This document shows positions 18,530-33,243 of a stretch of DNA of 64,000 nucleotides, one piece after another. How positions within the stretch are numbered: the first letter of the stretch is position 1; every line of letters starts with the position of its first letter. This stretch comes from Patescibacteria group bacterium (lineage in GTDB: Bacteria; Patescibacteriota; Microgenomatia; Levybacterales; UBA12049): NCBI GenBank assembly GCA_038063415.1, contig JBBTVD010000002.1:792-64791 (forward strand), in the 5' to 3' direction. The position numbers were made by a program, and so were the translations under genes. The notes beneath the pieces were generated by a model. That model worked only from the letters and a program-made list of their open reading frames with translations, was not told the DNA's origin and made no database searches.

Positions 18530-19699
18530 CTAATAAACAATCGTATACATGCGTGCGGTATCTATTTCTTGTATAAGTTGTATTTTCCCTGCTTTCTCCA
18601 TATTGGTTAATGCGCTTCGAATATTTTGTGGACTTTCGAGCAGTTGTGTCACCCATTGTCGATCATCAACAGTAATAATAAGGTATTGAGGTTTTCCAGA
18701 GAAGTCAAGCCACCAACAGGTATTTTCCCCGCATTTTTCTTGTGCTTCTTTCCCCGATTTTTGTCTGGGCCAGAGGAGATAAATTTCTTTTCTATGCGTT
18801 AAGTGAGGAACGAGATTTTGCGTAGTGGCGATACTGGCATCAGTCGGAATTTCTTTGAAGAGTGAATCAGTATCTTCCATCCATGAAGCCCTCTGCCAGT
18901 ATCCTTGTTTGACAAGTTTGTTTAACGGGAAATGAAAGACATATTGCAAAACAATTGCCGTAAGGACAAGTACCCCTACCGGAAACAGTAAATCAATTTT
19001 CTTTTTTCTCAAAAAGACAAGGGCATCAAGCGTCCCCAGACTTAAAAAGACTGCCAGGATAGCACGATGATGAAGATATGGTGTGAGCATGTGACCGAAT
19101 TCGCTTGCTGCAGCAAAGTATTGGGAGAGGTCAAGAGTCACGGCAAAGATACTTCCAGGGGAAAGAAGCGGCAAAAAAGCAAAACTACTAAATGAGTAAA
19201 GCCAAACAAGACGTTTCTCATGCGTATCAAAAAATTGCGTTGCGATAGACAAAGGATCATGAGCAACTTTTGGTTGATATTGGTAGCCTACAGGAGAAAG
19301 CAAGCTGACAATGCCAACCATAATAAGACTTGCCACAATGCCGCCAAGAATAAAGAGTAATGCCTTTTTTCGGTATTGCTTCTGAAAGAAATAGATACAA
19401 CCAAGTGATGCCAACGCAATTCCCATATTTTCCTGGGTTAACAGCATGACAGCAAGCGTTCCCCAGAAGAGTTTTCTCTTTCTGGCTTCAAAAAAATACG
19501 CAAGCCAGGCGAGGAGTCCAACGTCAGAGATCCAAAGGGTGAAGTCAGAACCACCGCGTATGATCATTGGAAAGAAACTACCATTGATGAAAATGGCCAT
19601 ATCAAAAGAGAGTATAAAAACGCCTATGACAAAATAACCAAGGTTGAAGAGGTAAATGGGGTCGAGACATATACCACGACGTATATCTACGATTCCCAT
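18530..19699 (-). CDS. Polytopic membrane protein with C-terminal soluble domain (DUF2079-like, unverified); start uncertain
   Basis: ORF track gives 18530..19840 with a TTG start. The Met at 19699 (MGIVDIRR...) or later Mets near 19447 are more plausible. The first ~85 codons run antisense to YD-repeat-like coding in the + frame. Confidence 0.4.
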   Translation of the reverse strand: MGIVDIRRGICLDPIYLFNLGYFVIGVFILSFDMAIFINGSFFPMIIRGGSDFTLWISDVGLLAWLAYFFEARKRKLFWGTLAVMLLTQENMGIALASLGCIYFFQKQYRKKALLFILGGIVASLIMVGIVSLLSPVGYQYQPKVAHDPLSIATQFFDTHEKRLVWLYSFSSFAFLPLLSPGSIFAVTLDLSQYFAAASEFGHMLTPYLHHRAILAVFLSLGTLDALVFLRKKKIDLLFPVGVLVLTAIVLQYVFHFPLNKLVKQGYWQRASWMEDTDSLFKEIPTDASIATTQNLVPHLTHRKEIYLLWPRQKSGKEAQEKCGENTCWWLDFSGKPQYLIITVDDRQWVTQLLESPQNIRSALTNMEKAGKIQLIQEIDTARMYTIVY

Positions 19700-19741
19700 G
19701 ATGCGCTCACCAAAATTACTGATGCAGCAAATAACGATAAT

Positions 19742-21016
19742 GTGCTTACCTATGACACGCTTGGAAGACGAATATCTCAGGCAGATCCAGATATGGGAAC
19801 ATGGCAGTACAGTTATGATGCTGTTGGAAATCTTACGCAAAAAACAGATAACCGTAACATCATGACAAGCTATCTCTATGATGAGCTTGATCGCAAAACA
19901 AAAATCGATTATCCCAATGATGTTGATACGGTCTATGCCTATGATGGGAATGGCAAAGTTGGGACCCTCACCTCAATTGTCGATACAGCTGGAATCTTGA
20001 ACTATACCTATGACAACAGATTACGCAAAATAGCAGAATCCCGAAGTATTGATGGAACTACCTGGACAACTCAATTTACTTATGATGCGGTAGATAGAGT
20101 TGTTAGCAAAACCAATCCTGATAGTGAAGTTTCTACCTATACACATAATGCTCAAGGAGAGGTTAACAGCGTCAGCGGTATTCTGAGTGATATTGATTAC
20201 AACGCGCAAAATAAAATAACCAAAAAAATATTTGTCAACGGATTGACGACAAATTATACGTACAATACGACTGATTTTCGATTGAGCAATAGTAAGACTG
20301 GGACGTTGCAAGATATGAGTTATACCTATGATAGCATCGGCAATGTAACAAACGTTATTGACAATCTCCTGAGTAAGACCCAGACGTTTGATTATGATGA
20401 CTTGGATCGATTAGTTACTGCATCAGAAAGTGCTGGATACATACATGAGTATACCTACAATGCTATTGGCAATTTGACTAAGTTTGTCAAAGATGGGACA
20501 ACTATTGATTATACCTATGGACAAAATGCAGGAGTTCATGCCGTAACTTCCTCGACAGAAAACCTACAAACGCCTACACCAACACCAGTAATAACAGCAA
20601 CTCCGACACCAACACAGGCACCATCTGAAATAGAACTCCTCACAAATACCTGGACATTGGCAGGAAACGATGGGTCTGATGAGGAAGACAAACAAATTCC
20701 TGCTGATTCCCTTGTCGGTAAAACGTCAGTACAAGTCACGTTTAATCTTCACGGGACATCCTTTGGTGGGGGAAATGATGAAGCTTCAGTTGTTTTTGTC
20801 CAGAACGGAGACTGGCGTGCAGCAAATGTCATCGTTGCTGGTGGTCAAAATGGGTTAAATGGATCGCAAACGGTGACGATTCCGATGAGTAGTTTCCATA
20901 AAGTAGGGGATACAAGCATACTGCTTGATCCAAATCAAAATGTATCAAATCTCCATGCCCGTTTCTGGAATAGTGGAAGTTTTTCGGTAGATATTACGAG
21001 TGTGAAGGTACAGTAG
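19742..21016 (+). CDS. RHS/YD-repeat protein fragment: more than 10 YD repeats, PT-rich linker, C-terminal beta-rich domain; no N-terminal domain and no canonical start
   Basis: Repeated YxYDxxGNL/YTYD motifs (TYDTLGRR, YSYDAVGNLTQ, YAYDGNGKV, YTYDSIGNVT...). The same frame stays open and YD-like back to about 19442. The TPTPTPVITATPTPTQAP linker is followed by a ~130-aa non-YD domain. Confidence 0.65.
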   Translation: MLTYDTLGRRISQADPDMGTWQYSYDAVGNLTQKTDNRNIMTSYLYDELDRKTKIDYPNDVDTVYAYDGNGKVGTLTSIVDTAGILNYTYDNRLRKIAESRSIDGTTWTTQFTYDAVDRVVSKTNPDSEVSTYTHNAQGEVNSVSGILSDIDYNAQNKITKKIFVNGLTTNYTYNTTDFRLSNSKTGTLQDMSYTYDSIGNVTNVIDNLLSKTQTFDYDDLDRLVTASESAGYIHEYTYNAIGNLTKFVKDGTTIDYTYGQNAGVHAVTSSTENLQTPTPTPVITATPTPTQAPSEIELLTNTWTLAGNDGSDEEDKQIPADSLVGKTSVQVTFNLHGTSFGGGNDEASVVFVQNGDWRAANVIVAGGQNGLNGSQTVTIPMSSFHKVGDTSILLDPNQNVSNLHARFWNSGSFSVDITSVKVQ

Positions 21017-21701: not shown

Positions 21702-22553
21702 ATGCACAAGCTCAGTGTAATCCTCGCTACCTTTAATGAAGAGAAAAATCTCGGCCCCTGTCTTGAGGCGCTTAAAGATATCGCTGACGAATTTGTCATC
21801 GTTGATGGAACATCTACTGATAAGACTGTTGCAATAGCAAAAAGTTACGGGGCTCGCGTGCTTGTCAGGCAGAATGAAAAGATTTTCCATATCAATAAGC
21901 AGAAAGCGCTTGATATGGCACGTAACGAATGGGTACTCCAAATGGATGCTGATGAAATTGTCAGTAAAGAACTTGCCAAAGAAATAATGCAAGTTATTAC
22001 TATGACGAAAGAAGAGCTTGAGGCATATCAAGAGAAGCTCCCAAACAAAAAACTTTTTCTTCGTCATCAGAAACTTCTGGCAGACCGTGATGGCAATATT
22101 GGTACAGAAGGTGGAGATTATGCCGCCTTTTTTATCCCACGTCTTAACTACTTCCTGGGTAAATACCTTCGATATGGAGGTGTCTATCCTGATGGGGTAA
22201 TCCGTCTTATCAAAAAAAGTAAATCACATTTCCCTTGTGTAAGCGTGCATGAACAGATAGCTGTCGATGGTCGAGTGGGCTGGCTCCAACATGATCTGTT
22301 GCATATGGCCGACCCCACTTTTGAGCGGTATCTCAAACGAAACAGTCGTTATATAAATCTGATTGTTGATGAACTCAAACAAGAAAAACATGTCTCAGCA
22401 TTTGCGTATATGGTGACACTTCCTCTTGGTTGGTTCTTCGCAACGACTTTTCGCCATAAGGGAATCCTTGATGGTTGGCAAGGGGTAACCTTCTCGTTTT
22501 TCTCTGCGCTTCGTTTCCCTCGGGCATATCTACGGTACAAAAAACAAAAGTAG
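21702..22553 (+). CDS. GT2 glycosyltransferase (WaaE/KdtX-like)
   Basis: MHKLSVILATFNEEKNLGPCL...VIVDGTSTDKT...MDADE. The ORF-track start at 21396 is a spurious extension overlapping the minus-strand gene; ATG at 21702 is preferred. Confidence 0.75.
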   Translation: MHKLSVILATFNEEKNLGPCLEALKDIADEFVIVDGTSTDKTVAIAKSYGARVLVRQNEKIFHINKQKALDMARNEWVLQMDADEIVSKELAKEIMQVITMTKEELEAYQEKLPNKKLFLRHQKLLADRDGNIGTEGGDYAAFFIPRLNYFLGKYLRYGGVYPDGVIRLIKKSKSHFPCVSVHEQIAVDGRVGWLQHDLLHMADPTFERYLKRNSRYINLIVDELKQEKHVSAFAYMVTLPLGWFFATTFRHKGILDGWQGVTFSFFSALRFPRAYLRYKKQK

Positions 22554-22570
22554 TTTCTTTGCAAAAGCCT

Positions 22571-22612
22571 TTGACGTTTTGTCAAGAATCTTGACACGTT
22601 TATCTATTGACA
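22571..22612 (+). promoter_or_regulatory. Overlapping TTGACA-containing palindromes (candidate operator and -35 elements)
   Basis: TTGACGTTTTGTCAA at 22571-22585, TGTCAAGAATCTTGACA at 22580-22596, TTGACA at 22607-22612. A possible -10 TATACT lies at 22632-22637 (19-bp spacer). Confidence 0.3.
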
Positions 22613-22644
22613 AGAGAGAAGGTGTGTCGTGTATACTTAATGCG

Positions 22645-22668
22645 GAGACATTTGTCTCTTTTTTTTAT
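22645..22668 (+). terminator. Short hairpin (GAGAC-ATTT-GTCTC) followed by a T9 run, located between the candidate promoter and the ATG at 22680 (terminator or leader attenuator)
   Basis: Read directly in the sequence; the stem is only 5-6 bp. Confidence 0.3.
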
Positions 22669-22679
22669 ACCATACTATT

Positions 22680-23595
22680 GTGAGAAACAGACTGACTGCC
22701 CTTATTGTTCTCGTGCTTGGATTTTTTTCGTTTTCCATTGCTCCTGTCTTTGCTATTGAAGCAATTCCAATCCCCAGGTCTCCCTACTCTTTTGTCGGTG
22801 CTTATCAAACAGATCTTTTTACAGGGAGCGGCAATTATAATTATCCACTCAAAGTCCCAAAAGGGGTTAATGATCTTACTCCAGAGGTAAACCTTTCTTA
22901 TAATAGTTCGTCGGGTTATTCGTTCTCTTCTTTTGTTGGGAATGGTTGGCAGATAAATCGTGATTATATTGAGCGCGATGTCAATTTTACTCCCGCCAAT
23001 AGTAGTACGGGAGATGACAAGTTTAAACTATCGCTCAACGGTTCAGTCTATGAATTCCCGACTGAGTAACGTTACCGTCAAGACAAATAATACACTCGTT
23101 CGGCAATACGACTTTGCTTTTTCACTTGCAGAAAGTAACCAGAGTCTCCTCAATTCCATTACTGAGAAAGGAAGCGACGGATCATCCCTCCCACCAACGA
23201 CTTTTGCGTATAAACCAGAAATCAAAAGTTGGAATTCCCAAAAAGAAATTTGGATAAATAATGCCTATATTGATTCCAATCTTGAGAGGCAAGATACAGC
23301 CCTTGCAGATGTTAATGGAGATGGCTATCCCGATATTGTCAGAACAGTACATCATGGAGGACCAAATGTTACTTGGAAAGTGCTCTACAACCAGGGAGGC
23401 AATAGTTGGTCTACCCAATTTCAAGTTGTAATAAATAACGTAGCAATGGAAGATGCTCGTCTTGATCGTAATGATGTAAGACTTGTTGATGTGACTGGTG
23501 ACCAGCTCCCTGATATTGTTATGGCAGTAACATCAAACCCATGGAGGGTTTGGAGAATAACCACCACCCTAACCACCACCCTCCAGGTGGAGTAG
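22680..23595 (+). pseudogene. RHS/Tc-toxin-type N-terminal region: signal peptide, SpvB-like domain, VCBS/FG-GAP-like mid domain. Frameshifted near 23040-23070 and 3'-truncated by a REP insertion
   Basis: DLFTGSGNYNYPLKVPKGVNDLTPEVNLSYNSSSG...GNGWQ matches the SpvB/TcdB N-domain signature. DVNGDGYPDIV and DVTGDQLPDIV are VCBS-like. Two overlapping ORFs (22680..23069 frame 0; 22960..23595 frame 1). The last codons (TTTLTTTLQVE) are encoded by REP DNA. Confidence 0.65.
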
Positions 23596-23697
23596 GTTTA
23601 CACCCAATACATTTCCCGCTAGTAAGAAAATAGAGAGAGGAGTAACAACCACCCTCCAGGTGAACCACCACCCTTCAGGTGAAACAGCTTTACACCT
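23559..23697. repeat. REP-like palindromic elements, three partial or complete copies in inverted orientation relative to the downstream copies
   Basis: AACCACCACCCTCCAGGTGGAGTAGGTTTACACC at 23571-23605 and AACCACCCTCCAGGTGAACCACCACCCTTCAGGTGAAACAGCTTTACACC at 23647-23697. The reverse complement begins GGTGTAAAGCT like the copy at 24468. Confidence 0.6.
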
Positions 23698-23792
23698 ATA
23701 AATTGATTAAAAAAGGGAGAGTGAATATCCCCATATAGAATGTCTATTTTTAAGATATTAAACAACCAATTTTATTAGACTAAAATAATACT

Positions 23793-24464
23793 ATGGCAGC
23801 TAATCGGAAGTTAATATTTTTGAATGAAAGTTATTATCATGTATTTAACCGAGGTATTGATAGGCGAGTAACATTTACAAACAAACGAGAACATGATCGT
23901 GCAATAGAGCTTCTTTCTTTTTATCAATATGCAACGATCCCCCTCCGTTATTCTCATTTTTCCTTATTGCCAGAAGATAAAAAAGAGGAATATTTATCGA
24001 CAATGATAAGCAGTGGAAAGATAGTAGATGTGATTGCTTATAGCCTTATGCCAAATCATTTTCATCTACTCCTCAAACAAAAGAAAGAAAAAGGAATAGC
24101 AACATATCTTGCGAACTTTATGAACGCATACACAAAGTACTTTAATACAAAACATGCCAGAACAGGGTCATTATTTCAAGGAATATTTAAAGCAATATAT
24201 GTCGAAACAGATGAACAGCTTATTCATCTCACCTGTTATATCCATCTTAATCCCGTAGCATCCAGTCTGATCTCTCCAGCGCAGTTAACAACCTATATGT
24301 GGTCATCGTATCCAGCTTATATTGGTATAGATACCGATAATTTAGTAAGTCGTGATGCTATACAATCAATTAAAGCATTGGTTAATAGTTACGAAGATTT
24401 TGTAAAAGATCAAATAGCCTATGCAAAAGAACTTGAAAAGATTAAGCATATGACTTTTGAATAA
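23793..24464 (+). CDS. REP-associated tyrosine transposase (RAYT, IS200-like Y1 transposase family)
   Basis: YHVFNRGIDRRVTF N-terminal motif, HxH motif YSLMPNHFHLLL, C-terminal YIHLNPVASSLISPAQLTTYMWSSY (catalytic Tyr region). Confidence 0.8.
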   Translation: MAANRKLIFLNESYYHVFNRGIDRRVTFTNKREHDRAIELLSFYQYATIPLRYSHFSLLPEDKKEEYLSTMISSGKIVDVIAYSLMPNHFHLLLKQKKEKGIATYLANFMNAYTKYFNTKHARTGSLFQGIFKAIYVETDEQLIHLTCYIHLNPVASSLISPAQLTTYMWSSYPAYIGIDTDNLVSRDAIQSIKALVNSYEDFVKDQIAYAKELEKIKHMTFE

Positions 24465-24467
24465 TAA

Positions 24468-24518
24468 GGTGTAAAGCTAAAACACCCTCCGGGTGGCGAT
24501 CTCCCGGGTGGCGATCTC
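24468..24518. repeat. REP-like element (forward orientation)
   Basis: GGTGTAAAGCTAAAACACCCTCCGGGTGGCGATCTCCCGGGTGGCGATCTC. Hairpin CACCC-TCC-GGGTG plus a duplicated CCGGGTGGCGATCTC. Confidence 0.6.
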
Positions 24519-24653
24519 TAGTAGCGGTAAAATTCTCTCTCATAAGTCTCTCCCGCAGTCTTACAGGTATTAATATCGTTCTCTTTTGTGATTGGAAGTG
24601 ACTGCAATTTTTGCAGATTGATACTTTCACCCGTAAAGTTATAAAATAACCTT

Positions 24654-25606
24654 ATGAGTTCAGAGGGTTCAGGAGAATATATAGGCGTACCGACTGGAGG
24701 GATACCAAAAAGCGTCTTCCGATTTGATCCCACAAGGAGAGACCAAACCTTTACTACCGCTTCAGGAGCAAGATTGGTCGGAGATGTCACCAGAGACAGA
24801 ATTTTTATTCACAACCCTAACGGATTTGGTGAATTTGGTGCAAAAATAGAAACGTACAACGGAAAGCCTCTGGTGCGCTTTACCATTAACAATGTACTTT
24901 GGGGACCACAGGGACACAGGGACACAGGGACACAGGGACACGGGCAAAGCATCCTGACATTTATCCAGCAAGGCTTCTTGCGGAAACGATGCGATACTTT
25001 CGGGAGCAAGGACATGATATTCGCTACCTAAAAGGTGATTGGACAGATGCACCACAAGAAGGAACAAATTATAATCAGTATTGGAACTATTTACGAGGAT
25101 TAGGAAAAGACACTTTCACCGATGCAGATAAGGCAGCGGCAGCACGACGGACATGGACAGGAAACCAAGCTCGCCTCTATGGTTTCACTGATGTCGTGGA
25201 TGTTCGGGAACTACAAGATGCTTTTGAAAGAAAGGTTGTGGTTATCTTTGGCAAGCCTCAAGAGCAAGCTCCATCACCACCCTCAGCTGAGCCTCAAAAA
25301 ATAACACCTCCACCAACTCCTGAGACAGGCGTTTCAGTAGGTGGAGGAGCAAGTATCCGAGTAGCAAAAGAGTAGCTTGGGACTGCTGATGAAAAACTAA
25401 CTGAGGTTGTTGGCATTTTAGGTCAGTCAGCACAAGAGATTGAGGATATCCGTGGCGCAGTTCTCGCCGTCGCTGAGGGGTTAAATAATCCCGCTATTGC
25501 CAATTTATTAGCTGCATTGGAAAATCTGAATGATGCCGCACAACAAGGTGCTGGTCGTCTTGAAAATGCAAGAGTTGATACGGAAGAGTATCGAGAGAAT
25601 TTATAG
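24654..25606 (+). pseudogene. Toxin-like / RHS-C-terminal-like ORF of unknown family, split by a frameshift inside an 8-bp tandem repeat and by an in-frame TAG
   Basis: Frame 0 ORF 24654..25031 and frame 2 ORF 24899..25375 are each meaningful only on their own side of the repeat. The frame stays open after the TAG at 25373-25375 to 25606 with no start codon. A PT-rich linker is present. Confidence 0.4.
24902..24942 (+). repeat. 8-bp tandem repeat GGGACACA x5 (3 perfect copies at 24911-24934 plus 2 imperfect flanking) inside a coding region
   Basis: Read directly. Encodes a GTQGHRDT repeat. Unit length is not a multiple of 3. Confidence 0.85.
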
Positions 25607-25690
25607 CCACTCTATACCAAACAACTTAATCACGAACTCCCCCCCCGTCTTGCTGTCTCTTTTTCGCTTCTTCCATAAGTTTACGATGAT

Positions 25691-25720
25691 AACCACCCTC
25701 TAGGTAGAATAGCTTTACAC
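25691..25720. repeat. REP-like element (reverse orientation)
   Basis: AACCACCCTCTAGGTAGAATAGCTTTACAC. Confidence 0.55.
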
Positions 25721-25747
25721 ATGCTACGTTGGTAGAAGTAAGGGGGA

Positions 25748-25795
25748 GGTGTAAACTTAGACCACCCGTCGGGTGGTAATTACCGGGTGGTAATT
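25748..25795. repeat. REP-like element (forward orientation), head-to-head with 25691-25720
   Basis: GGTGTAAACTTAGACCACCCGTCGGGTGGTAATTACCGGGTGGTAATT. Hairpin ACCACCCG-T-CGGGTGGT; palindrome GGTAATTACC. Confidence 0.6.
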
Positions 25796-26088
25796 ATTTT
25801 ATTGGATACTTGCAAATATATTTGTATTGTTTATTCAAATTGTTATCTTTATTTTATATGTGATTTTAGTTGCAGATATTGGTTTTAAGCTTGATCCTGA
25901 AGTAGAGAACTCAATAGTTCCATAATTTTTTGCTTCAGCGAGCAGCATCTCTCTTTCTTACTTTGCATTCAGTAAGTTACGTTATTCGATTATTAAACTT
26001 GTACTGACATTCTTACTTGGAATAGTGTTATCTGTTATTGGATTTGTCGCAGTAATAATAGCTTTTCAAGCAATTTAGCTTAATATGA

Positions 26089-26208
26089 CTACAGTATGAT
26101 GCCAATGGGAATATGACATCGGATGGGACCAAATGCTATGAGTACAATGAAGCCAATCAGATGGTGAAGGTGAAGAAGTGCAGTAACAACCAGACGATAG
26201 CAGAGTAA
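26089..26208 (+). pseudogene. Remnant of a YD (RHS) repeat, 39 codons without start
   Basis: Translation LQYDANGNMTSDGTKCYEYNEANQMVKVKK... fits the YD repeat consensus YDxxGN..S....Y.Y.......V. Confidence 0.45.
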
Positions 26209-26467
26209 ATACTCATAAATCTCCCTTCATCAGCTCACTACGCCTATTCCATTCTTTCCAACCTATAAGAGCAATAGTCGTCATTAATGGTATGGCTAAA
26301 ATCCACAAGGCTAAATATACCCCAATCTTGAGGCTAGACACAACATTTTCAACTCTTTCCACAAGACGTGTGCTCATGGTTAGAGTCGTTGGTAAAGTTG
26401 CTGCATTCATATGTCCCGTAGTATATCGACATGTTACTATTTTGTCAATAGTTATTGGTGTAAGAGG

Positions 26468-26515
26468 TGGTGTAAATCCATACCACCCGTCGGGTGGTAA
26501 TTGCGGGTGGTAATT
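26468..26515. repeat. REP-like element (forward orientation)
   Basis: GGTGTAAATCCATACCACCCGTCGGGTGGTAATTGCGGGTGGTAATTG. Confidence 0.6.
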
Positions 26516-26609
26516 GTTATCTCAATCAGCCCTAGGGGTTGCATTCGTTTCTAGAATACGGGCGCCGAATGGGTTTGACACATATTTTTATAAGGATTAT
26601 ACTCATGCA

Positions 26610-26861
26610 ATGAAAGAAAAACAGCCAACAAGAAGAGAGGCAATCGGTCTCGGCTTAAGTGCGATGGTAATTGCAACCAGCTGCAGTTCAGAAGGGCAAC
26701 CTTCTTCTGAAGCATTGAACAGCCAAGATTGGCTATTAAGGTCAGACGATCCTAATCTTATTCATACGGTAGAAAATTTTCTTCTTGAAACTAGCAATAC
26801 GTTATCGCTGTTGAAGCTGCACAACCCTATTCCAAACTACCTTCAACAGCGCTCCCTATAG
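26610..26861 (+). CDS. Small putative Tat-signal lipoprotein
   Basis: MKEKQPTRREAIGLGLSAMVIATSCSS: twin-arginine motif, hydrophobic core and a lipobox-like ATSC. The ORF-track start at 26514 overlaps REP DNA. Confidence 0.35.
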   Translation: MKEKQPTRREAIGLGLSAMVIATSCSSEGQPSSEALNSQDWLLRSDDPNLIHTVENFLLETSNTLSLLKLHNPIPNYLQQRSL

Positions 26862-27206
26862 AACAAAAGCACTTTAGATTTAAGCAAGAAAACAATACCT
26901 ATGATCAGTTCAATTAAGAAGTCCCCAAACAGCTACAAAACCAGCTTCTAGCGAGATATGGGGATCAATAGATAATGGAGAAACACGTGTAACCATCCTT
27001 GTCCGAAGTGATGAATATGGGGTTACAGTAGGAAGATCACATCAAAATTCACACACCGATGTAAGTCCAACTCCAACTCCACAATCTTCAGCTATTGATC
27101 CAGAAAATGCCGAAAATGCCTTGGAACAAGCACGTATCTTCTTCGCTGATATACAACAAGCAGCAGAATCTTAGCATAGATTCTTGCTCCGGTCAGGTTG
27201 CCACTT

Positions 27207-30912: not shown

Positions 30913-31167
30913 ATGATGTATAATAAATGTATGGCTCATCAAATTCTCCCACCATATATTACACAATATTTTTGGGGAGATAACCTCACACAGCTTGACT
31001 TGGAGAAAAATCAAAAATATATTATAGAAACACTTCTTGAAAGAGGAGATAGTCATGCGCTACATTGGTTGTTCTCACACGTTGATAAACAAACAATAAT
31101 TCATTTTTTGCCCAAGTTAAAATTAGGTAAAAAATCAGAACATTTCTGGAATATCTATTTTGCTTAA
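30913..31167 (+). CDS. Small protein, possible cognate antitoxin partner of the downstream AbiEii-like gene
   Basis: 84 aa, overlaps the next gene by 8 nt. No recognisable family by eye. Confidence 0.3.
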   Translation: MMYNKCMAHQILPPYITQYFWGDNLTQLDLEKNQKYIIETLLERGDSHALHWLFSHVDKQTIIHFLPKLKLGKKSEHFWNIYFA

Positions 31168-31792
31168 TATGCAACTCTACACAGATACTTTGCCGAAATC
31201 AACAGCAGCTGTTCTTGAGAAGATCAAGGGAATAAATAAATTAAAAAGTTTTTATTTAAGTGGAGGGACAGCCCTTTCCTTGCAACTTGGTCATCGAGAG
31301 TCGGAAGACTTAGACTTCTTTATACAAAATACCTTTAATCCTGAAGTGCTTCAACAAGAGCTTCTACAACAAGGCAAATTAGAGCAGGTAATGATTGATG
31401 AAGGCACCTTGAATGCATTTATGGATAGTGTAAAATTGCAGTTCTTATTTTATCCATATGACTTACTCGAAAAATCGAAAGAATGGAATGGTATTTATCT
31501 TTCTTCAGTGATTGATATTGCTTGCACAAAATTAGTAACTGTTTCTATGCGTGGCAGTAAAAAAGATTTTATTGACATATATGTTATTTTACAGAAGGTA
31601 TCCTTAGCTGATTTATTTCAGAAGCTACATGAGAAATACAAAAATGTTGGGTATAATGAGCCTCATCTTTTAAAATCACTCGTTTATTTCGATGATGCAG
31701 ATGTACAACCTATGCCCAAAATGCACATCTCTCTTGAATGGGAAACAGTTAAAAATTTTATAGTTAAGGAAGTCAAAAAGATCACTTTTTGA
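31160..31792 (+). CDS. Nucleotidyltransferase, AbiEii/DUF1814-like (type IV TA toxin family)
   Basis: FYLSGGTALSLQLGHRESEDLDFF fits the GG[ST]AL...R.S.D[IL]D nucleotidyltransferase motif of AbiEii. Confidence 0.65.
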   Translation: MLNMQLYTDTLPKSTAAVLEKIKGINKLKSFYLSGGTALSLQLGHRESEDLDFFIQNTFNPEVLQQELLQQGKLEQVMIDEGTLNAFMDSVKLQFLFYPYDLLEKSKEWNGIYLSSVIDIACTKLVTVSMRGSKKDFIDIYVILQKVSLADLFQKLHEKYKNVGYNEPHLLKSLVYFDDADVQPMPKMHISLEWETVKNFIVKEVKKITF

Positions 31793-32608: not shown

Positions 32609-33019
32609 TCACTGCTTAAAGTACTTCGGAAATGTATACGATAAGGTTTTTGGATGGATAATGCCAATACCAGCATATTCTTTGAGAGCAAGAAGGTCTT
32701 GATCCAAGCTTACAATGAGGTCTGCCTTTCCGGAAACAGCACATGCAAGAATCTTTGTATCATCGGGATCACGATTAAAAATTATTGTGTCGGTTACTTC
32801 TATGACATCAGCGATTTGTTTTATCTTCAGTATAAAAAATGTTGTTTGTTCTTTTGACCAATGAAATTTTGTAAGCAATTTTTTCTGAAGCTCCGTGAGG
32901 ATTTCTGGAGAAGTCAATAAAACAACAATTTTTTGATCAGCGAGTGAAATGATGTCTTGCGCAAATCCGCCTCGTAGTGCTGCGGCGATAAAGACATTAG
33001 TATCAAATACAATTCTCAT
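32609..33019 (-). CDS. PIN-domain toxin (VapC-like)
   Basis: MRIVFDTNVFI...DPDDTKILACA...ADLIVSLDQDLL: acidic residues in the PIN pattern. Confidence 0.7.
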   Translation of the reverse strand: MRIVFDTNVFIAAALRGGFAQDIISLADQKIVVLLTSPEILTELQKKLLTKFHWSKEQTTFFILKIKQIADVIEVTDTIIFNRDPDDTKILACAVSGKADLIVSLDQDLLALKEYAGIGIIHPKTLSYTFPKYFKQ

Positions 33020-33243
33020 CCCGCAATTTTTTCAATATCATCGTATGATTCAATACCCATTTTTCTCGTCGTTTCATCTCCCCATCTTCGGACTTTTGAC
33101 CAATCTCTCTGGAATTGATAGACACGAAAAGCCTCCCGTAAGAGTTCGCTGATTGTTTTATCTTCTTCGGCTGCAAGGTCTTTAATTTTTTTCTCCAATT
33201 GAGCTGGTACAGAAATATTAATAATAGATCGTTGTAAACTCAT
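33016..33243 (-). CDS. Ribbon-helix-helix antitoxin (VapB/CopG-like) for the PIN toxin
   Basis: 75 aa, 4-nt overlap with the PIN gene. ...ISVPAQLEKKIKDLAAEE... is typical of RHH. Confidence 0.55.
   Translation of the reverse strand: MSLQRSIINISVPAQLEKKIKDLAAEEDKTISELLREAFRVYQFQRDWSKVRRWGDETTRKMGIESYDDIEKIAG

Follow-up and report, generated by a model that had tools for sequence, protein, structure and literature searches.

RESULTS

Anatomy of the locus

The window analyzed here, a 64-kb stretch of DNA from a groundwater Patescibacteria genome, carries a gene of the RAYT/IS200 superfamily with its own ~50-bp hairpin repeat on both sides, in inverted orientation (Table 1). The repeat runs from a head (GGTGTAAA; consensus GGTGTMAA) through a 6-nt spacer and a hairpin with a 6-bp stem and a 3-nt loop (consensus CCACCY-NNN-RGGTGG) to a short tail that repeats the 3' arm. 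One copy stands on either side of the gene, with the heads pointing inward and the hairpins outward; inverted flanking copies of one family had been described in an earlier note on this DNA, and this is indeed the architecture of a REPtron. Six copies of the element occur within positions 23555 to 26518, against a chance expectation of 0.01 for the window. A search with the pattern GGTGTAAA-N7-CACC-N5-GGTGG, in which up to two mismatches were allowed, gave matches at 23576-23604 (-), 23668-23696 (-), 24468-24496 (+), 25693-25721 (-), 25748-25776 (+), and 26469-26497 (+), and none of 100 shuffled sequences reached six matches. The covariance model that the earlier note had called for, scanned over every position of the 64 kb, returned the same six copies (35 to 43 bits); its sole other match was a headless hairpin at 23649-23667, and there were no further copies in the other 61 kb. 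All six positions given in that note were thus recovered, shifted by a few bases at most, and both scans bore out its statement that the window holds no copies elsewhere. Copies D and E form a head-to-head pair, with D as the left half and 26 nt between them, which resembles the B-gene-C arrangement with the gene left out. The hairpins are short, and as single-stranded DNA their stability is only modest (-1.4 to -11 kcal/mol; z, 0 to -2.7); the argument for function is accordingly built on their repetition and on conservation among relatives, not on thermodynamics.

Table 1. Features of the locus, in window coordinates
Feature	Position	Strand	Description
RHS N-terminal pseudogene	22680..23556	+	SpvB, FG-GAP, and TcdB_toxin_midN pieces; frameshift near 23057-23069
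Copy A, extra upstream copy	23555..23605	-	Head 23604-23597; hairpin CCACCT-GGA-GGGTGG, 23590-23576; 12-nt duplication in tail (GGGTGGTGGTTA x2)
Copy B, upstream flanking element	23644..23697	-	Head GGTGTAAA, 23696-23689; 6-nt spacer; hairpin TCACCT-GAA-GGGTGG, 23682-23668, then TGGT; second, headless hairpin TCACCT-GGA-GGGTGG, 23663-23649
Weak sigma-70-like promoter	23759..23786	+	TAAACA-16-TAAAAT, ends 6 nt before ATG; consensus match only
Y1 HUH enzyme gene, RAYT-like	23793..24464	+	Intact, 223 aa; ORF, Pfam, motifs, predicted fold
Copy C, downstream flanking element	24468..24518	+	Begins 3 nt past stop codon; head 24468-24475; hairpin ACACCC-TCC-GGGTGG, 24482-24496; exact 15-nt tandem duplication (CCGGGTGGCGATCTC x2), 24489-24503 and 24504-24518
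Decayed gene between copies C and D, family unassigned	24654..25606	+	Frameshift within 8-nt repeat (CACAGGGA)x4, 24907-24946; in-frame TAG, 25373-25375
Copy D	25688..25721	-	Head TGTGTAAA; hairpin CTACCT-AGA-GGGTGG; no tail duplication; most degenerate of the six
Copy E	25748..25798	+	Head; hairpin CCACCC-GTC-GGGTGG, 25762-25776; 14-nt tail duplication (CGGGTGGTAATTA x2)
Orphan RHS module remnant	26092..26206	+	39 codons (YDANGNMTSDGTKCYEYNEANQ...); similarity to ORF of L209
Copy F, solo	26469..26518	+	Hairpin as in E; exact 13-nt tail duplication (CGGGTGGTAATTG x2)

An RHS toxin locus, by now decayed, surrounds the unit. When the intact 1843-aa RHS protein of a relative (L209) was used in a tblastn search, its aa 252-415 aligned to 23059-23556, the equivalent of aa 125-251 was missing, and the alignment ended 1 to 2 nt inside the tail of copy A. 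The N-terminal pseudogene breaks off at aa 415 of 1843, right at the start of copy A, which provides its last ~13 codons and stop; the earlier note had likewise described a pseudogene that ends in element DNA. In L209, an orphan ORF for an RHS core end and toxin abuts the RAYT unit, and the orphan remnant in the window shares 83% identity with the first part of that ORF across 36 aa. RHS adjacency was found in the two closest contexts.

Assignment of the protein

The 223-aa protein, previously labeled a Y1 REP-associated tyrosine transposase, passed the Pfam profile PF01797 (Y1_Tnp; 28.2 bits versus a cutoff of 23) but fell short of the NCBIfam RAYT equivalog (37.9 bits versus 80). Searches of the PDB with the sequence only gave marginal matches (E = 0.04). 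The top PDB match of an AlphaFold2 model (pLDDT, 89) was the complex of E. coli RayT and a REP hairpin, 4ER8 (E = 1.8e-7), which outranked the IS608 and ISDra2 TnpA structures. This RayT-like fold retains an intact catalytic HUH and tyrosine: the HUH motif NHFH is N88-H89-F90-H91, the catalytic Y149 lies in YIHLNP, the tail motif is W170-S-S, and H89, H91, Y149, N153, and P154 were invariant among 45 homologues. The Y-x-x-x-N-P motif and RayT as the best fold match support the placement of the protein in the RAYT branch of Y1 HUH enzymes. That part of the label stood; the canonical REP-associated subclass did not, the motifs being those of subclass 2.1. Residue 148 is a cysteine here and an arginine in all 44 other aligned homologues, and the head of copy B lies 96 nt from the ATG, compared to 27 to 31 nt in most relatives; for these two reasons the window allele may be weakened, perhaps inactive.

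Conservation in relatives

A homologue search (E <= 0.001) returned 5,344 clusters, with lengths of 223 to 229 aa nearly throughout among those listed. Few of the top 120 clusters carried an organism name, and the names were all Patescibacteria, Levybacteria, or Daviesbacteria. Given this many homologue clusters, and relatives with the same flanking elements, the expectation that such a system would be unusual in a CPR genome was not borne out; rather, the arrangement is of a known kind and appears to be common in Patescibacteria.

The layout is kept across the protein family. The order hairpin-head-gene-head-hairpin recurred in close relatives (L005, L007, and L009), with the stem altered to CCACGC/GCGTGG in L009. 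Matching inverted flank hairpins (repeat score of at least 12) were present at 43 of 70 two-flank loci compared to 4 of 267 controls (Fisher P = 5e-31), and every scoring upstream/downstream repeat held a short palindrome, the sequence of which varied by locus. The hairpin thus co-varies with the gene. Compensatory changes were seen in four of the six stem pairs, and 92.6% of cells were paired, versus 42 to 56% with the partner columns slid, in an alignment fitted to the model. Divergent paralogues have hairpins of their own: second paralogues occur in L147, L150, and L164, and the one in L150 carries a different hairpin. All second copies within 10 kb were divergent (36 to 41% identity to the query), with no duplicates. 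Tandem duplications were found in 28 of 152 flanks compared to 21 of 950 control windows (P = 3e-13) and began almost always in the loop or the 3' arm. Loop orientation was of the flip/flop kind, and at 21 of 45 loci the two hairpins showed an identical loop when read along one strand. Double-foot forms (head-hairpin-inverted head) occurred in six relatives (L018, L075, L122, L129, L133, and L135), and no repeat insertions were seen inside the gene.

The upstream repeat probably doubles as the gene promoter, with a leaderless mRNA. On the coding strand, the upstream head of most relatives has the sequence TTGACA, 16 to 18 nt before a -10-like hexamer that itself lies 6 to 10 nt before the ATG, and this geometry was present in 23 loci among those listed. 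It is the -35 spacing of this TTGACA that makes it probable that the repeat also carries the promoter. The candidate promoter in the window keeps the leaderless geometry of the relatives, in which the -35 box is formed by the upstream head (TTGACA); promoter-consensus matches in the region were no more numerous than expected from shuffling.

Copies away from the gene are rare across the related loci. Over 738 kb around 83 homologues, the covariance model gave 99 matches, and a stricter regex scan gave 49 matches within 200 nt of the gene, 12 distal, and 1 inside the gene, with ~5 in total in shuffled sequence and a near-gene enrichment of roughly 90-fold. Far from any RAYT gene, solo and dimeric copies turned up in one Omnitrophota bin as well as in other Patescibacteria; identical solo copies were present on three contigs of the Omnitrophota bin and on two of a single Patescibacteria bin. 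The repeats are points at which assemblies break, and in one contig (L002) copy A is joined to another flank.

Comparison with known systems

The motifs NHFH, FQ, YIHLNP, and WSSY match TnpA-Y1 subclass 2.1, equivalent to Bertels group 1 and to "TIRYT," an assignment made from diagnostic motifs (NH[YF]H, FQ, Y[IV]HLNP, and an SS tail in Table 1 of PMC6006769) rather than from phylogeny. All four motifs are present, in 223 aa here versus a median of 238. As in the TIRtrons and their subclass 2.1 and group 1 equivalents (Di Nocera et al. 2013, PMC3733652; Quentin et al. 2018, PMC6006769; Bertels et al. 2017, PMC5581495), the gene has terminal inverted repeats on both sides, close by and at a fixed spacing; these make up small families only, sometimes as dimers or clusters, and copies per genome are apparently few, with paralogues, if any, divergent. 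The head GGTGTMAA differs from the GGGGWSAS reported for those systems, agreeing at 6 of 8 positions. Unlike subclass 2.1 as treated in the cited sections of Quentin et al. 2018 (PMC6006769), where no REPs or REP-like structures were found beside the genes, each repeat here has a co-varying 6-bp/3-nt hairpin; an HTH or DnaA_C C-terminal domain is also reported for that subclass, whereas Pfam detected none in the 223-aa protein. The sections of the TIRtron, subclass 2.1, and group 1 surveys cited here (PMC3733652, PMC6006769, and PMC5581495) make no mention of Patescibacteria, the clade of this system, nor of tail duplications, flip/flop loops, or an in-repeat promoter. A published description of the gene-repeat arrangement is missing for Patescibacteria; the biology itself is not.

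With the E. coli REPtron (TnpA-REP, RayT/YafM, with REP/BIME sequences; subclass 2.2), the source of the best structural match, the system shares the HUH with a single catalytic Tyr in Y-x-x-x-N-P, inverted hairpin repeats that flank the gene, and, on the functional strand, a conserved motif located 5' to the hairpin. In contrast, sequence identity to TnpA-REP is ~11%, with the score here below the NCBIfam cutoff; GTAG stands directly at the hairpin foot in E. coli, whereas the 8-mer here is set off by 6 nt; the stem here has 6 bp, compared to the long, bulged stems of E. coli REPs; and E. coli REPs are dispersed by the hundreds, whereas the copies here are essentially local. As with Pseudomonas REPINs (groups 2/3; Bertels & Rainey 2011), inverted dimers, namely, the D/E pair and the double-foot forms of relatives, can fold into a longer hairpin, and each RAYT paralogue has a separate repeat, but the protein group differs and there is no sign here of a replicating REPIN population of tens to hundreds. 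The head-hairpin-inverted head palindromes of several relatives also recall the "double-foot" REPs of subclass 2.4 in the cited part of Quentin et al. 2018, the proteins of which have other motifs (NH[IFV]H, WQ, and YIxNNP). IS200/IS605 transposases (IS608 and ISDra2 TnpA) share the fold and chemistry and, by analogy, the probable recognition of small subterminal hairpins on single-stranded DNA through a specificity sequence distant from the hairpin; as at their ends, both hairpins are identical on one strand in about half of the loci. The class 1 features of that family (Y-x-x-x-Q, ~150 aa, many identical copies, and non-inverted ends) were absent.

DISCUSSION

We consider it likely that the locus is a "TIRtron/REPtron"-type unit, in which a largely domesticated, low-copy Y1 HUH nuclease/ligase for single-stranded DNA, from the RAYT branch, is paired with a cognate DNA element. 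If the enzyme acts as E. coli TnpA-REP and IS608 TnpA do, it would bind the folded hairpin on transiently single-stranded DNA (the lagging-strand template), use the head as a guide or for specificity, and nick and rejoin the DNA beside the hairpin. Such local activity might yield occasional extra copies as by-products (A, D/E, and F here), and head-to-head and double-foot dimers, as well as the recurrent tandem duplication of the loop/3' arm with 5 to 12 nt of flank, may be by-products of the same nicking and joining. The duplication footprint could alternatively have come from replication slippage at hairpins and not from the enzyme. Binding at the upstream repeat, with its probable promoter, would autoregulate expression.

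An autonomous IS200-like insertion sequence, in which the ~0.9-kb repeat-gene-repeat unit is mobile and D/E and the solo copies are MITE-like derivatives mobilized in trans, is an unlikely alternative that would nonetheless account for several observations: repeats at a near-constant distance from the gene in dozens of loci with unrelated neighbors, the 26 nt between the D and E heads (as after an internal deletion), the assembly breaks, the second flank of copy A in L002, and the shared loops, which resemble IS200/IS605 ends. Group 1 is, moreover, rated the most IS-like RAYT group in the cited part of Bertels et al. 2017 (PMC5581495). Against mobility, the protein has the class 2 motif rather than the Y-x-x-x-Q of IS200 and matches RayT best in fold, and, since the heads are inverted, no single strand has two like-oriented complete ends. 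Clusters at 90% identity held 1 to 3 member sequences on 1 to 4 contigs; swarms of identical copies are thus absent, and the second copies nearby are divergent paralogues, not duplicates. Finally, the RHS neighborhood is common to the window and to relatives with enzymes 66% and 74% identical, which suggests long residence over recent hopping.

It is still less probable that this is a classical REP/REPIN-RAYT system of the Escherichia/Pseudomonas kind, with a single-copy RAYT and tens to hundreds of dispersed palindromes, of which the window would be a copy-poor part. The REPtron-like architecture, the RayT-like fold, the REPIN- or BIME-like dimers, the identical solo copies within the two bins, and again the assembly breaks would fit. 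However, the absence of copies from the other 61 kb argues, for an assumed genome of ~1 Mb, against more than a few tens, and the ~12 distal matches in ~705 kb around relatives compare to ~5 expected by chance, with some belonging to second paralogues. The repeats also have no GT[AG]G foot, and the motifs are those of subclass 2.1, for which the cited sources report no REPs (PMC6006769) and, as group 1, flanking 16-mers with ~12 occurrences (PMC5581495). Of the REP-RAYT label in the earlier note, the bracketing of the gene by inverted hairpin repeats therefore holds, and high-copy dispersal was unsupported.

That the hairpins are ordinary operator/promoter and terminator signals of a housekeeping gene, with the extra copies as remnants of local duplication and no DNA processing by the enzyme, is very improbable: although the upstream head coincides with the -35 box, the downstream hairpin directly follows the stop codon, and a terminator-like scan picked two of the hairpins, most hairpins have no T-run after them, no Rfam family matches them, solo and dimeric copies lie far from any RAYT gene, the upstream hairpin matches and co-varies with the downstream one even though its place upstream of the -35 keeps it out of the transcript, and the protein has by its sequence the full catalytic set of an HUH nuclease, and its closest solved relative binds exactly such hairpins.

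Identity of the RAYT-like protein

The analysis confirmed that the window holds a RAYT-type enzyme with cognate inverted hairpins in an RHS locus, in which one gene is truncated at a repeat. The 223-aa product of the RAYT-like gene matched the Pfam family PF01797 (Y1_Tnp) at 28.2 bits (cut-off, 23; E 2.2e-6), which upholds its earlier reading as a Y1 transposase. Against NCBIfam NF047646 (REP-associated tyrosine transposase, equivalog, E. coli type), the score was 37.9 bits, below the cut-off of 80. Across an alignment of 45 homologues, the HUH motif N88-H89-F90-H91 and Y149 were unchanged, Y149-I-H-L-N153-P154 was invariant, and the tail motif W170-S-S was invariant or nearly so; the protein also contains L127-F-Q-G. 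The invariant Y-x-x-x-N-P is the motif of class 2 TnpA-Y1/RAYT proteins, those of class 1 having Y-x-x-x-Q (PMC6006769). By its motif set (NHFH, FQ, YIHLNP, and SS), compared with the published set for TnpA-Y1 subclass 2.1 (NH[YF]H / FQ / Y[IV]HLNP / proximal-tail SS; PMC6006769, Table 1), the protein is assigned to that subclass on diagnostic motifs rather than on a tree. Subclass 2.1 corresponds to group 1 of Bertels et al. (PMC5581495) and, for the most part, also to the TIRYT set that Di Nocera et al. described (PMC3733652). The C-terminal HTH-like domain of subclass 2.1 (Bac_DnaA_C, HTH_23, or HTH_28) was not detected, Pfam at E<=1 giving Y1_Tnp only; the C-terminal 60 aa are helical in the AlphaFold2 model.

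Sequence-only PDB searches, either with the single sequence or with a 45-sequence profile, gave marginal IS200/ISDra2 matches (E 0.04-0.7), and a fold comparison was therefore needed. The AlphaFold2 model (pLDDT 89; pTM 0.86) was matched best by 4ER8_A, the E. coli RayT with its REP hairpin (E 1.8e-7; TM(target) 0.69). The best TnpA structure followed at E 9e-5, with ISDra2 and IS608 TnpA ranking after RayT. RayT and IS200/IS605-family TnpA structures made up all of the first 16 PDB matches and most of the first 30. The earlier identification of the gene as a RAYT thus stands for a RAYT-type enzyme with cognate inverted hairpins and falls for the canonical REP-associated family, the motifs being those of subclass 2.1 and TIRYT-like proteins. 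Codon 148 (24234-24236), directly preceding the catalytic Tyr149, encodes Cys in the window protein versus Arg in all 44 other aligned homologues, and with Cys148 beside Tyr149 the window copy of the enzyme may be impaired.

Anatomy of the repeat element in the window

A pattern scan of the window for GGTGTAAA-N7-CACC-N5-GGTGG, with at most two mismatches, gave six matches (see the table), the chance level of this head-plus-hairpin pattern being 0.01 hits in the shuffled window. A covariance model applied at every position of the 64 kb recovered the same six copies at 35-43 bits, plus one headless hairpin in copy B, and found no copies outside the repeat cluster in the remaining 61 kb. Both scans thus agree with the six copies, and none elsewhere in the 64 kb, that the earlier note had claimed.

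Read 5' to 3' on its own strand, the element consists of a head, a 6-nt spacer, a 6-bp stem with a 3-nt loop, and a tail. The head is GGTGTAAA in the window copies except copy D, where it is TGTGTAAA, and the hairpin is CCACC(C/T)-NNN-GGGTGG, with the 6-bp stem and the 3-nt loop in all six copies. Read on their own strand, the three minus-strand copies show purine-rich loops and a T.G pair, so that on the plus strand, the G-rich one by cumulative GC skew, all six hairpins read CCACCC-YYC-RGGTGG. As single-stranded DNA, the window hairpins have only modest stability. The tails of copies A, C, E, and F are tandem duplications of the 3' arm plus 6 to 7 further bases (exact in A, C, and F), with no common dinucleotide evident at the junctions of these four copies. 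The hairpin foot lacks the GT[AG]G tetranucleotide and is preceded instead by a conserved 5' motif, GGTGTMAA, 6 nt from the stem; no Rfam family matched at E<=1 in 22500-27200. Base pairing between GGTG of the head and CACC of the 5' arm, which is predicted for copies B and C, was rejected, because GGTG persists in the head even where the stem is CAACC/GGTTG. Readings of the repeats as integron attC sites, CRISPR, or terminators were also discarded, there being no integrase, no regular spacing, and no T-runs.

Features of the repeat-bearing locus in the window and second RAYT-like paralogues in homologue loci
Feature	Position	Strand	Pattern-scan match	Tail unit (nt)	Source
RHS repeats	19742-21016				Pfam
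SpvB, FG-GAP, and TcdB_midN pieces	22680-23559				Pfam
Copy A	23555-23605	-	23576-23604	12	
Copy B (flanks gene)	23644-23697	-	23668-23696		
RAYT-like gene	23793-24464	+			
Copy C (flanks gene)	24468-24518	+	24468-24496	15	
C-D gene (between copies C and D)	24654-25606				
Copy D	25688-25721	-	25693-25721		
Copy E	25748-25798	+	25748-25776	14	
YD fragment	near 26092-26206				Pfam
Copy F	26469-26518	+	26469-26497	13	
DUF6922/AbiEii pair	30931-31792				
RHH/PIN pair	32609-33243				
Second paralogue, locus L147	75-716				
Second paralogue, locus L150	5978-6610				
Second paralogue, locus L164	13519-14142				

Association of gene and repeat across relatives

Three relatives (L005, L007, and L009; 64-72% identical) have the layout of the window, with a hairpin and then TTGACACC directly before the ATG and with GGTGTAAAGCT plus a hairpin directly after the stop codon; in L009, the stem is altered to CCACGC/GCGTGG. 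A scan of metagenome contigs added 80 loci at 35-53% identity. An inverted repeat between the flanks (score of at least 12) was found in 43 of the 70 loci with both flanks versus 4 of 267 control window pairs (p = 5e-31), and the shared flank sequence always holds a short palindrome that differs by locus (e.g., TTAACCTCGGAGGTTAA, TTGCACACTTCGGAAGTGTGCAA, CACACCAGGTGTG, and CCCTCACATCGGAAGTGAGGG). With the covariance model (29 nt, 6 pairs), the 738 kb surrounding 83 homologues yielded 99 matches; almost all of these directly flank the gene, on the minus strand upstream and on the plus strand downstream. A stricter regex scan gave 49 matches at most 200 nt from the gene, 12 distal matches, and 1 intragenic match, compared with about 5 in total in shuffled sequence. 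Among 93 distinct matches, compensatory changes occurred in 4 of the 6 stem pairs; 92.6% of the cells were paired versus 42-56% in slid controls, a comparison that leans towards structure because the alignment was fitted to the model. Double-foot forms (head-hairpin-inverted head) were present in L018, L075, L122, L129, L133, and L135, and head-to-head pairs in L166 and, as copies D and E, in the window.

In most of the head-bearing relatives (upstream flanks, L122-L186), the coding-strand sequence of the upstream head is TTGACA; a -10-like hexamer (T-A-n-n-n-T) follows at 16-18 nt, and the ATG 6-10 nt further. The upstream heads listed are nearly all GGTGTCAA, and the downstream heads vary (GGTGCCAA, GGTGTGAA, and GGTGTAAA). 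This geometry, together with the uniformity of the upstream heads, suggests that the upstream repeat probably carries the promoter of a leaderless mRNA. In the window, the upstream head is TTTACA, 96 nt away from the ATG, and the only promoter-like sequence adjacent to the gene is weak (TAAACA-16-TAAAAT).

Occurrence in Patescibacteria and relation to known systems

Groundwater contigs from Hainich encode the exact RAYT-like protein, as does an NCBI MAG named "Patescibacteria group bacterium". Homologues at E<=0.001 formed 5,344 clusters; among the clusters listed (at 90% identity), nearly all proteins are 223-229 aa, with 1-3 member sequences each, and the few with an organism name are Patescibacteria, Levybacteria, or Daviesbacteria. 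The RAYT-like gene is therefore not unusual for CPR, and the earlier expectation that a REPtron-like unit would be unusual there does not hold, since the arrangement is common in Patescibacteria and the relatives have the same flanks. A literature search found no published description of a RAYT-like gene in CPR. A second RAYT-like paralogue, 36-41% identical to the query, was present within 10 kb in 3 of 86 loci (see the table). The two paralogues of L150 have different flanking hairpins, in keeping with one repeat per RAYT, a known REPtron behavior; the second one has an internal stop after YIH. No identical gene copies were seen, either among the 90%-identity clusters or as second paralogues in the 86 loci.

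The window element resembles REPs, which are short stem-loop palindromes inverted around a cognate RAYT gene (REPtron). However, the window element lacks the GT[AG]G foot of REPs. Classical REPs usually number more than 100 per genome, dispersed between genes. TIRYT/subclass 2.1 genes have inverted terminal repeats, often with GGGGWSAS, and the window head GGTGTMAA fits this at six of eight positions, as a variant motif. IS200/IS605 elements have Y-x-x-x-Q, a TnpA of about 150 aa, and near-identical copies, whereas the window protein has YIHLNP and 223 aa, and identical copies of it were not seen; their subterminal hairpins are like-oriented, whereas here the heads are inverted, although the loop is of the "same strand" type in 21 of 45 loci.

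According to the available sections of the respective papers, group 1/subclass 2.1 is the largest RAYT group (Bertels et al., PMC5581495) and the second-largest TnpA-Y1 subclass overall (Quentin et al., PMC6006769), and its RAYT-like genes form the most widespread RAYT branch. In those sections, Quentin et al. found no repeats for this subclass (PMC6006769), Di Nocera et al. found only heterogeneous inverted repeats (PMC3733652), and neither activity nor function of the enzymes is reported (PMC6006769, PMC3733652, and PMC5581495). The Patescibacteria clade is large and length-uniform, and its conserved DNA partner (head, spacer, and co-varying hairpin) is unusually clean. The general picture of REP/RAYT biology is unchanged, and the unit is no rarity in CPR genomes.

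Dispersal and copy number

An element-pattern scan of 185,579 species genomes, a set to which the source genome does not belong, gave 110 stretches, which were mostly chance matches in GC-rich genomes (about 70 expected); only two of them (L031 and L096) also have a RAYT homologue. There were genuine-looking solo copies, several of them in Patescibacteria (L018, L029, L030, L072, L075, L117, and L077), and no RAYT homologue was detected near these in the retrieved blocks of up to 8 kb. An identical element, GGTGTAAAGCTATTCCACCTCCGAGGTGG, occurs on three contigs of one Omnitrophota MAG of 61-66% GC (L051 1035-1063, L061 5599-5627, and L070 4125-4153), again without a detected RAYT homologue in the retrieved blocks (about 6.6-8 kb). 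Of the solo copies examined, roughly half were intergenic according to a crude ORF test. Two identical copies in L077 (859-887 and 3482-3510) lie 2.6 kb apart in direct orientation and are identical over at least 40 nt of their 3' flank as well, which makes them part of a longer repeat.

That the other 61 kb of the window contain no copy speaks against a total above a few tens per genome, assuming a genome of about 1 Mb. Near the relatives, distal copies occurred at about 1 per 60-90 kb. This density is in line with the "moderately repeated TIR families" reported by Di Nocera et al. (PMC3733652) and with the approximately 12 occurrences of flanking 16-mers for group 1 (PMC5581495), and not with a classical REP population. 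The window repeats, which have no GTAG foot, thus probably form a TIR family of low copy number whose members are mostly local.

Assembly ERZ1292645 has one contig of 79.5 kb that stops at 23642 and another of 16.6 kb that begins at 23588, so that the assembly graph branches inside the A/B repeat region. In contig L002, which stems from a different replicate sample, copy A (1-40, set against window positions 23540-23590) has one tail unit, not two, and continues into 21 nt (TAAATGCTATAGGTTTATAAT; alternative flank, TAAATGCTATAGGTTTATAA) missing from the 64-kb window. This junction may reflect structural variation, a further copy in the genome, or a chimeric assembly, and together with the breaks in ERZ1292645 it hints at at least one further copy or variant. 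As to strain polymorphism or an empty site, exact look-ups of both neighboring genes returned only the window haplotype, on contigs that break at the repeats or at an 8-nt repeat.

Tail duplications and loop flips

The tail duplications seen in the window recur in the relatives. A tandem duplication of the loop/3' arm plus 5-12 nt of distal flank was found in 28 of 152 flanks versus 21 of 950 control windows (p = 3e-13); the loci include L125, L126, L141, L148, L151, L157, L159, L173, L176, L187, L194, and L209. These duplications, of 2-3 units of 10-19 nt, are independent and occur in loci with quite different hairpins. By analogy with the solved RayT and IS608 systems, the enzyme would recognize the hairpin on single-stranded DNA and then nick and rejoin the DNA. 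A tail duplication could result if strands were transferred between a cleavage site within or close to the loop and a second one a few bases 3' of the hairpin. Such a strand-transfer origin is plausible but unproven, replication slippage being the alternative.

The 3-nt loops of the two flanks were also compared in 45 homologue loci. They were reverse complemented ("flipped") in 21, identical in 17, and different in 7, which indicates that loop orientation relative to the gene is close to random, a pattern reminiscent of flip/flop hairpins. No mention of tail duplications, loop flip/flop, or a promoter in the repeat appears in the available sections of PMC6006769, PMC3733652, and PMC5581495. 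The duplications and flips point to where the enzyme may cut, and with the clean DNA partner they make this a convenient system for a biochemical test of subclass 2.1 enzymes. Of all the findings, these two footprints most merit further study.

The RHS locus

In L209 (RAYT 66% identical), the RAYT unit (1163-1943) is on the opposite strand and separates an intact RHS gene of 1843 aa from an orphan ORF of RHS core end plus toxin. Residues 1-124 of the L209 RHS protein align to 22680-23057 of the window, and residues 252-415 align to 23059-23556, stopping exactly at the tail of copy A; an RHS gene truncated at the repeat, as had been proposed, is thereby corroborated. Residues 1098-1440 align to 19523-20545, and the first 36 residues of the orphan ORF are 83% identical to 26098-26205. 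In L207 (1-2139; RAYT 74% identical), the RAYT closely follows an RHS core end (NPLKYTDPTGH), a toxin, and a Barstar gene. No RHS sequence lies near the RAYT in any of the 83 other homologue loci; a general RAYT-RHS association was therefore rejected, and the link is confined to the closest subclade. The point of divergence between L209 and L210, which have the same RAYT and different downstream DNA, is not the repeat but a site in the RHS PT-linker about 65 nt past it; the difference is RHS-type recombination, not repeat mediated.

The locus is most simply explained by an old insertion into an RHS locus, followed by decay in the window lineage. The signs of decay are the truncated RHS gene, the broken C-D gene, and the gene-less D/E pair. 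An 8-nt repeat (CACAGGGA), present four times at 24907-24946, splits the C-D gene into frames 24654-25031 and 24899-25375; loss of one 8-nt unit would restore the frame, which makes this a possible slippage or phase-variation site. An in-frame TAG at 25373-25375, a nonsense mutation in a decaying gene, separates ORF 24899-25375 from 70 coding-looking codons that extend to the end of the C-D gene. Neither part of this gene matched a Pfam family. A Logan contig (L203) ends near the 8-nt repeat.

A TIRtron-type unit accounts for the repeat cluster of the window, the assembly breaks, and the RHS truncation. A further reading is that the tail duplications and the approximately 50:50 loop flip/flop are the in vivo footprint of nick-and-rejoin or hairpin resolution by subclass 2.1/group 1 enzymes, which would also have repeatedly remodeled the RHS locus of the window lineage; we regard this as improbable. 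The remodeling part draws on the truncation exactly at the repeat, the opposite-strand RAYT unit in the relative, and the gene-less pair at the ancestral position.

The RHS pieces in the window are out of order, with the region of residues 1098-1440 (19523-21016) upstream of that of residues 1-415 (22680-23556) and a 217-aa minus-strand ORF and a GT2 glycosyltransferase gene between them; part of the RHS sequence (19523-19741) overlaps the 5' end of an opposite-strand DUF2079 gene. Two toxin-antitoxin-like pairs lie downstream of the locus (see the table), and the rest of the window consists mostly of PMT_2, glycosyltransferase, and sugar-epimerase genes.
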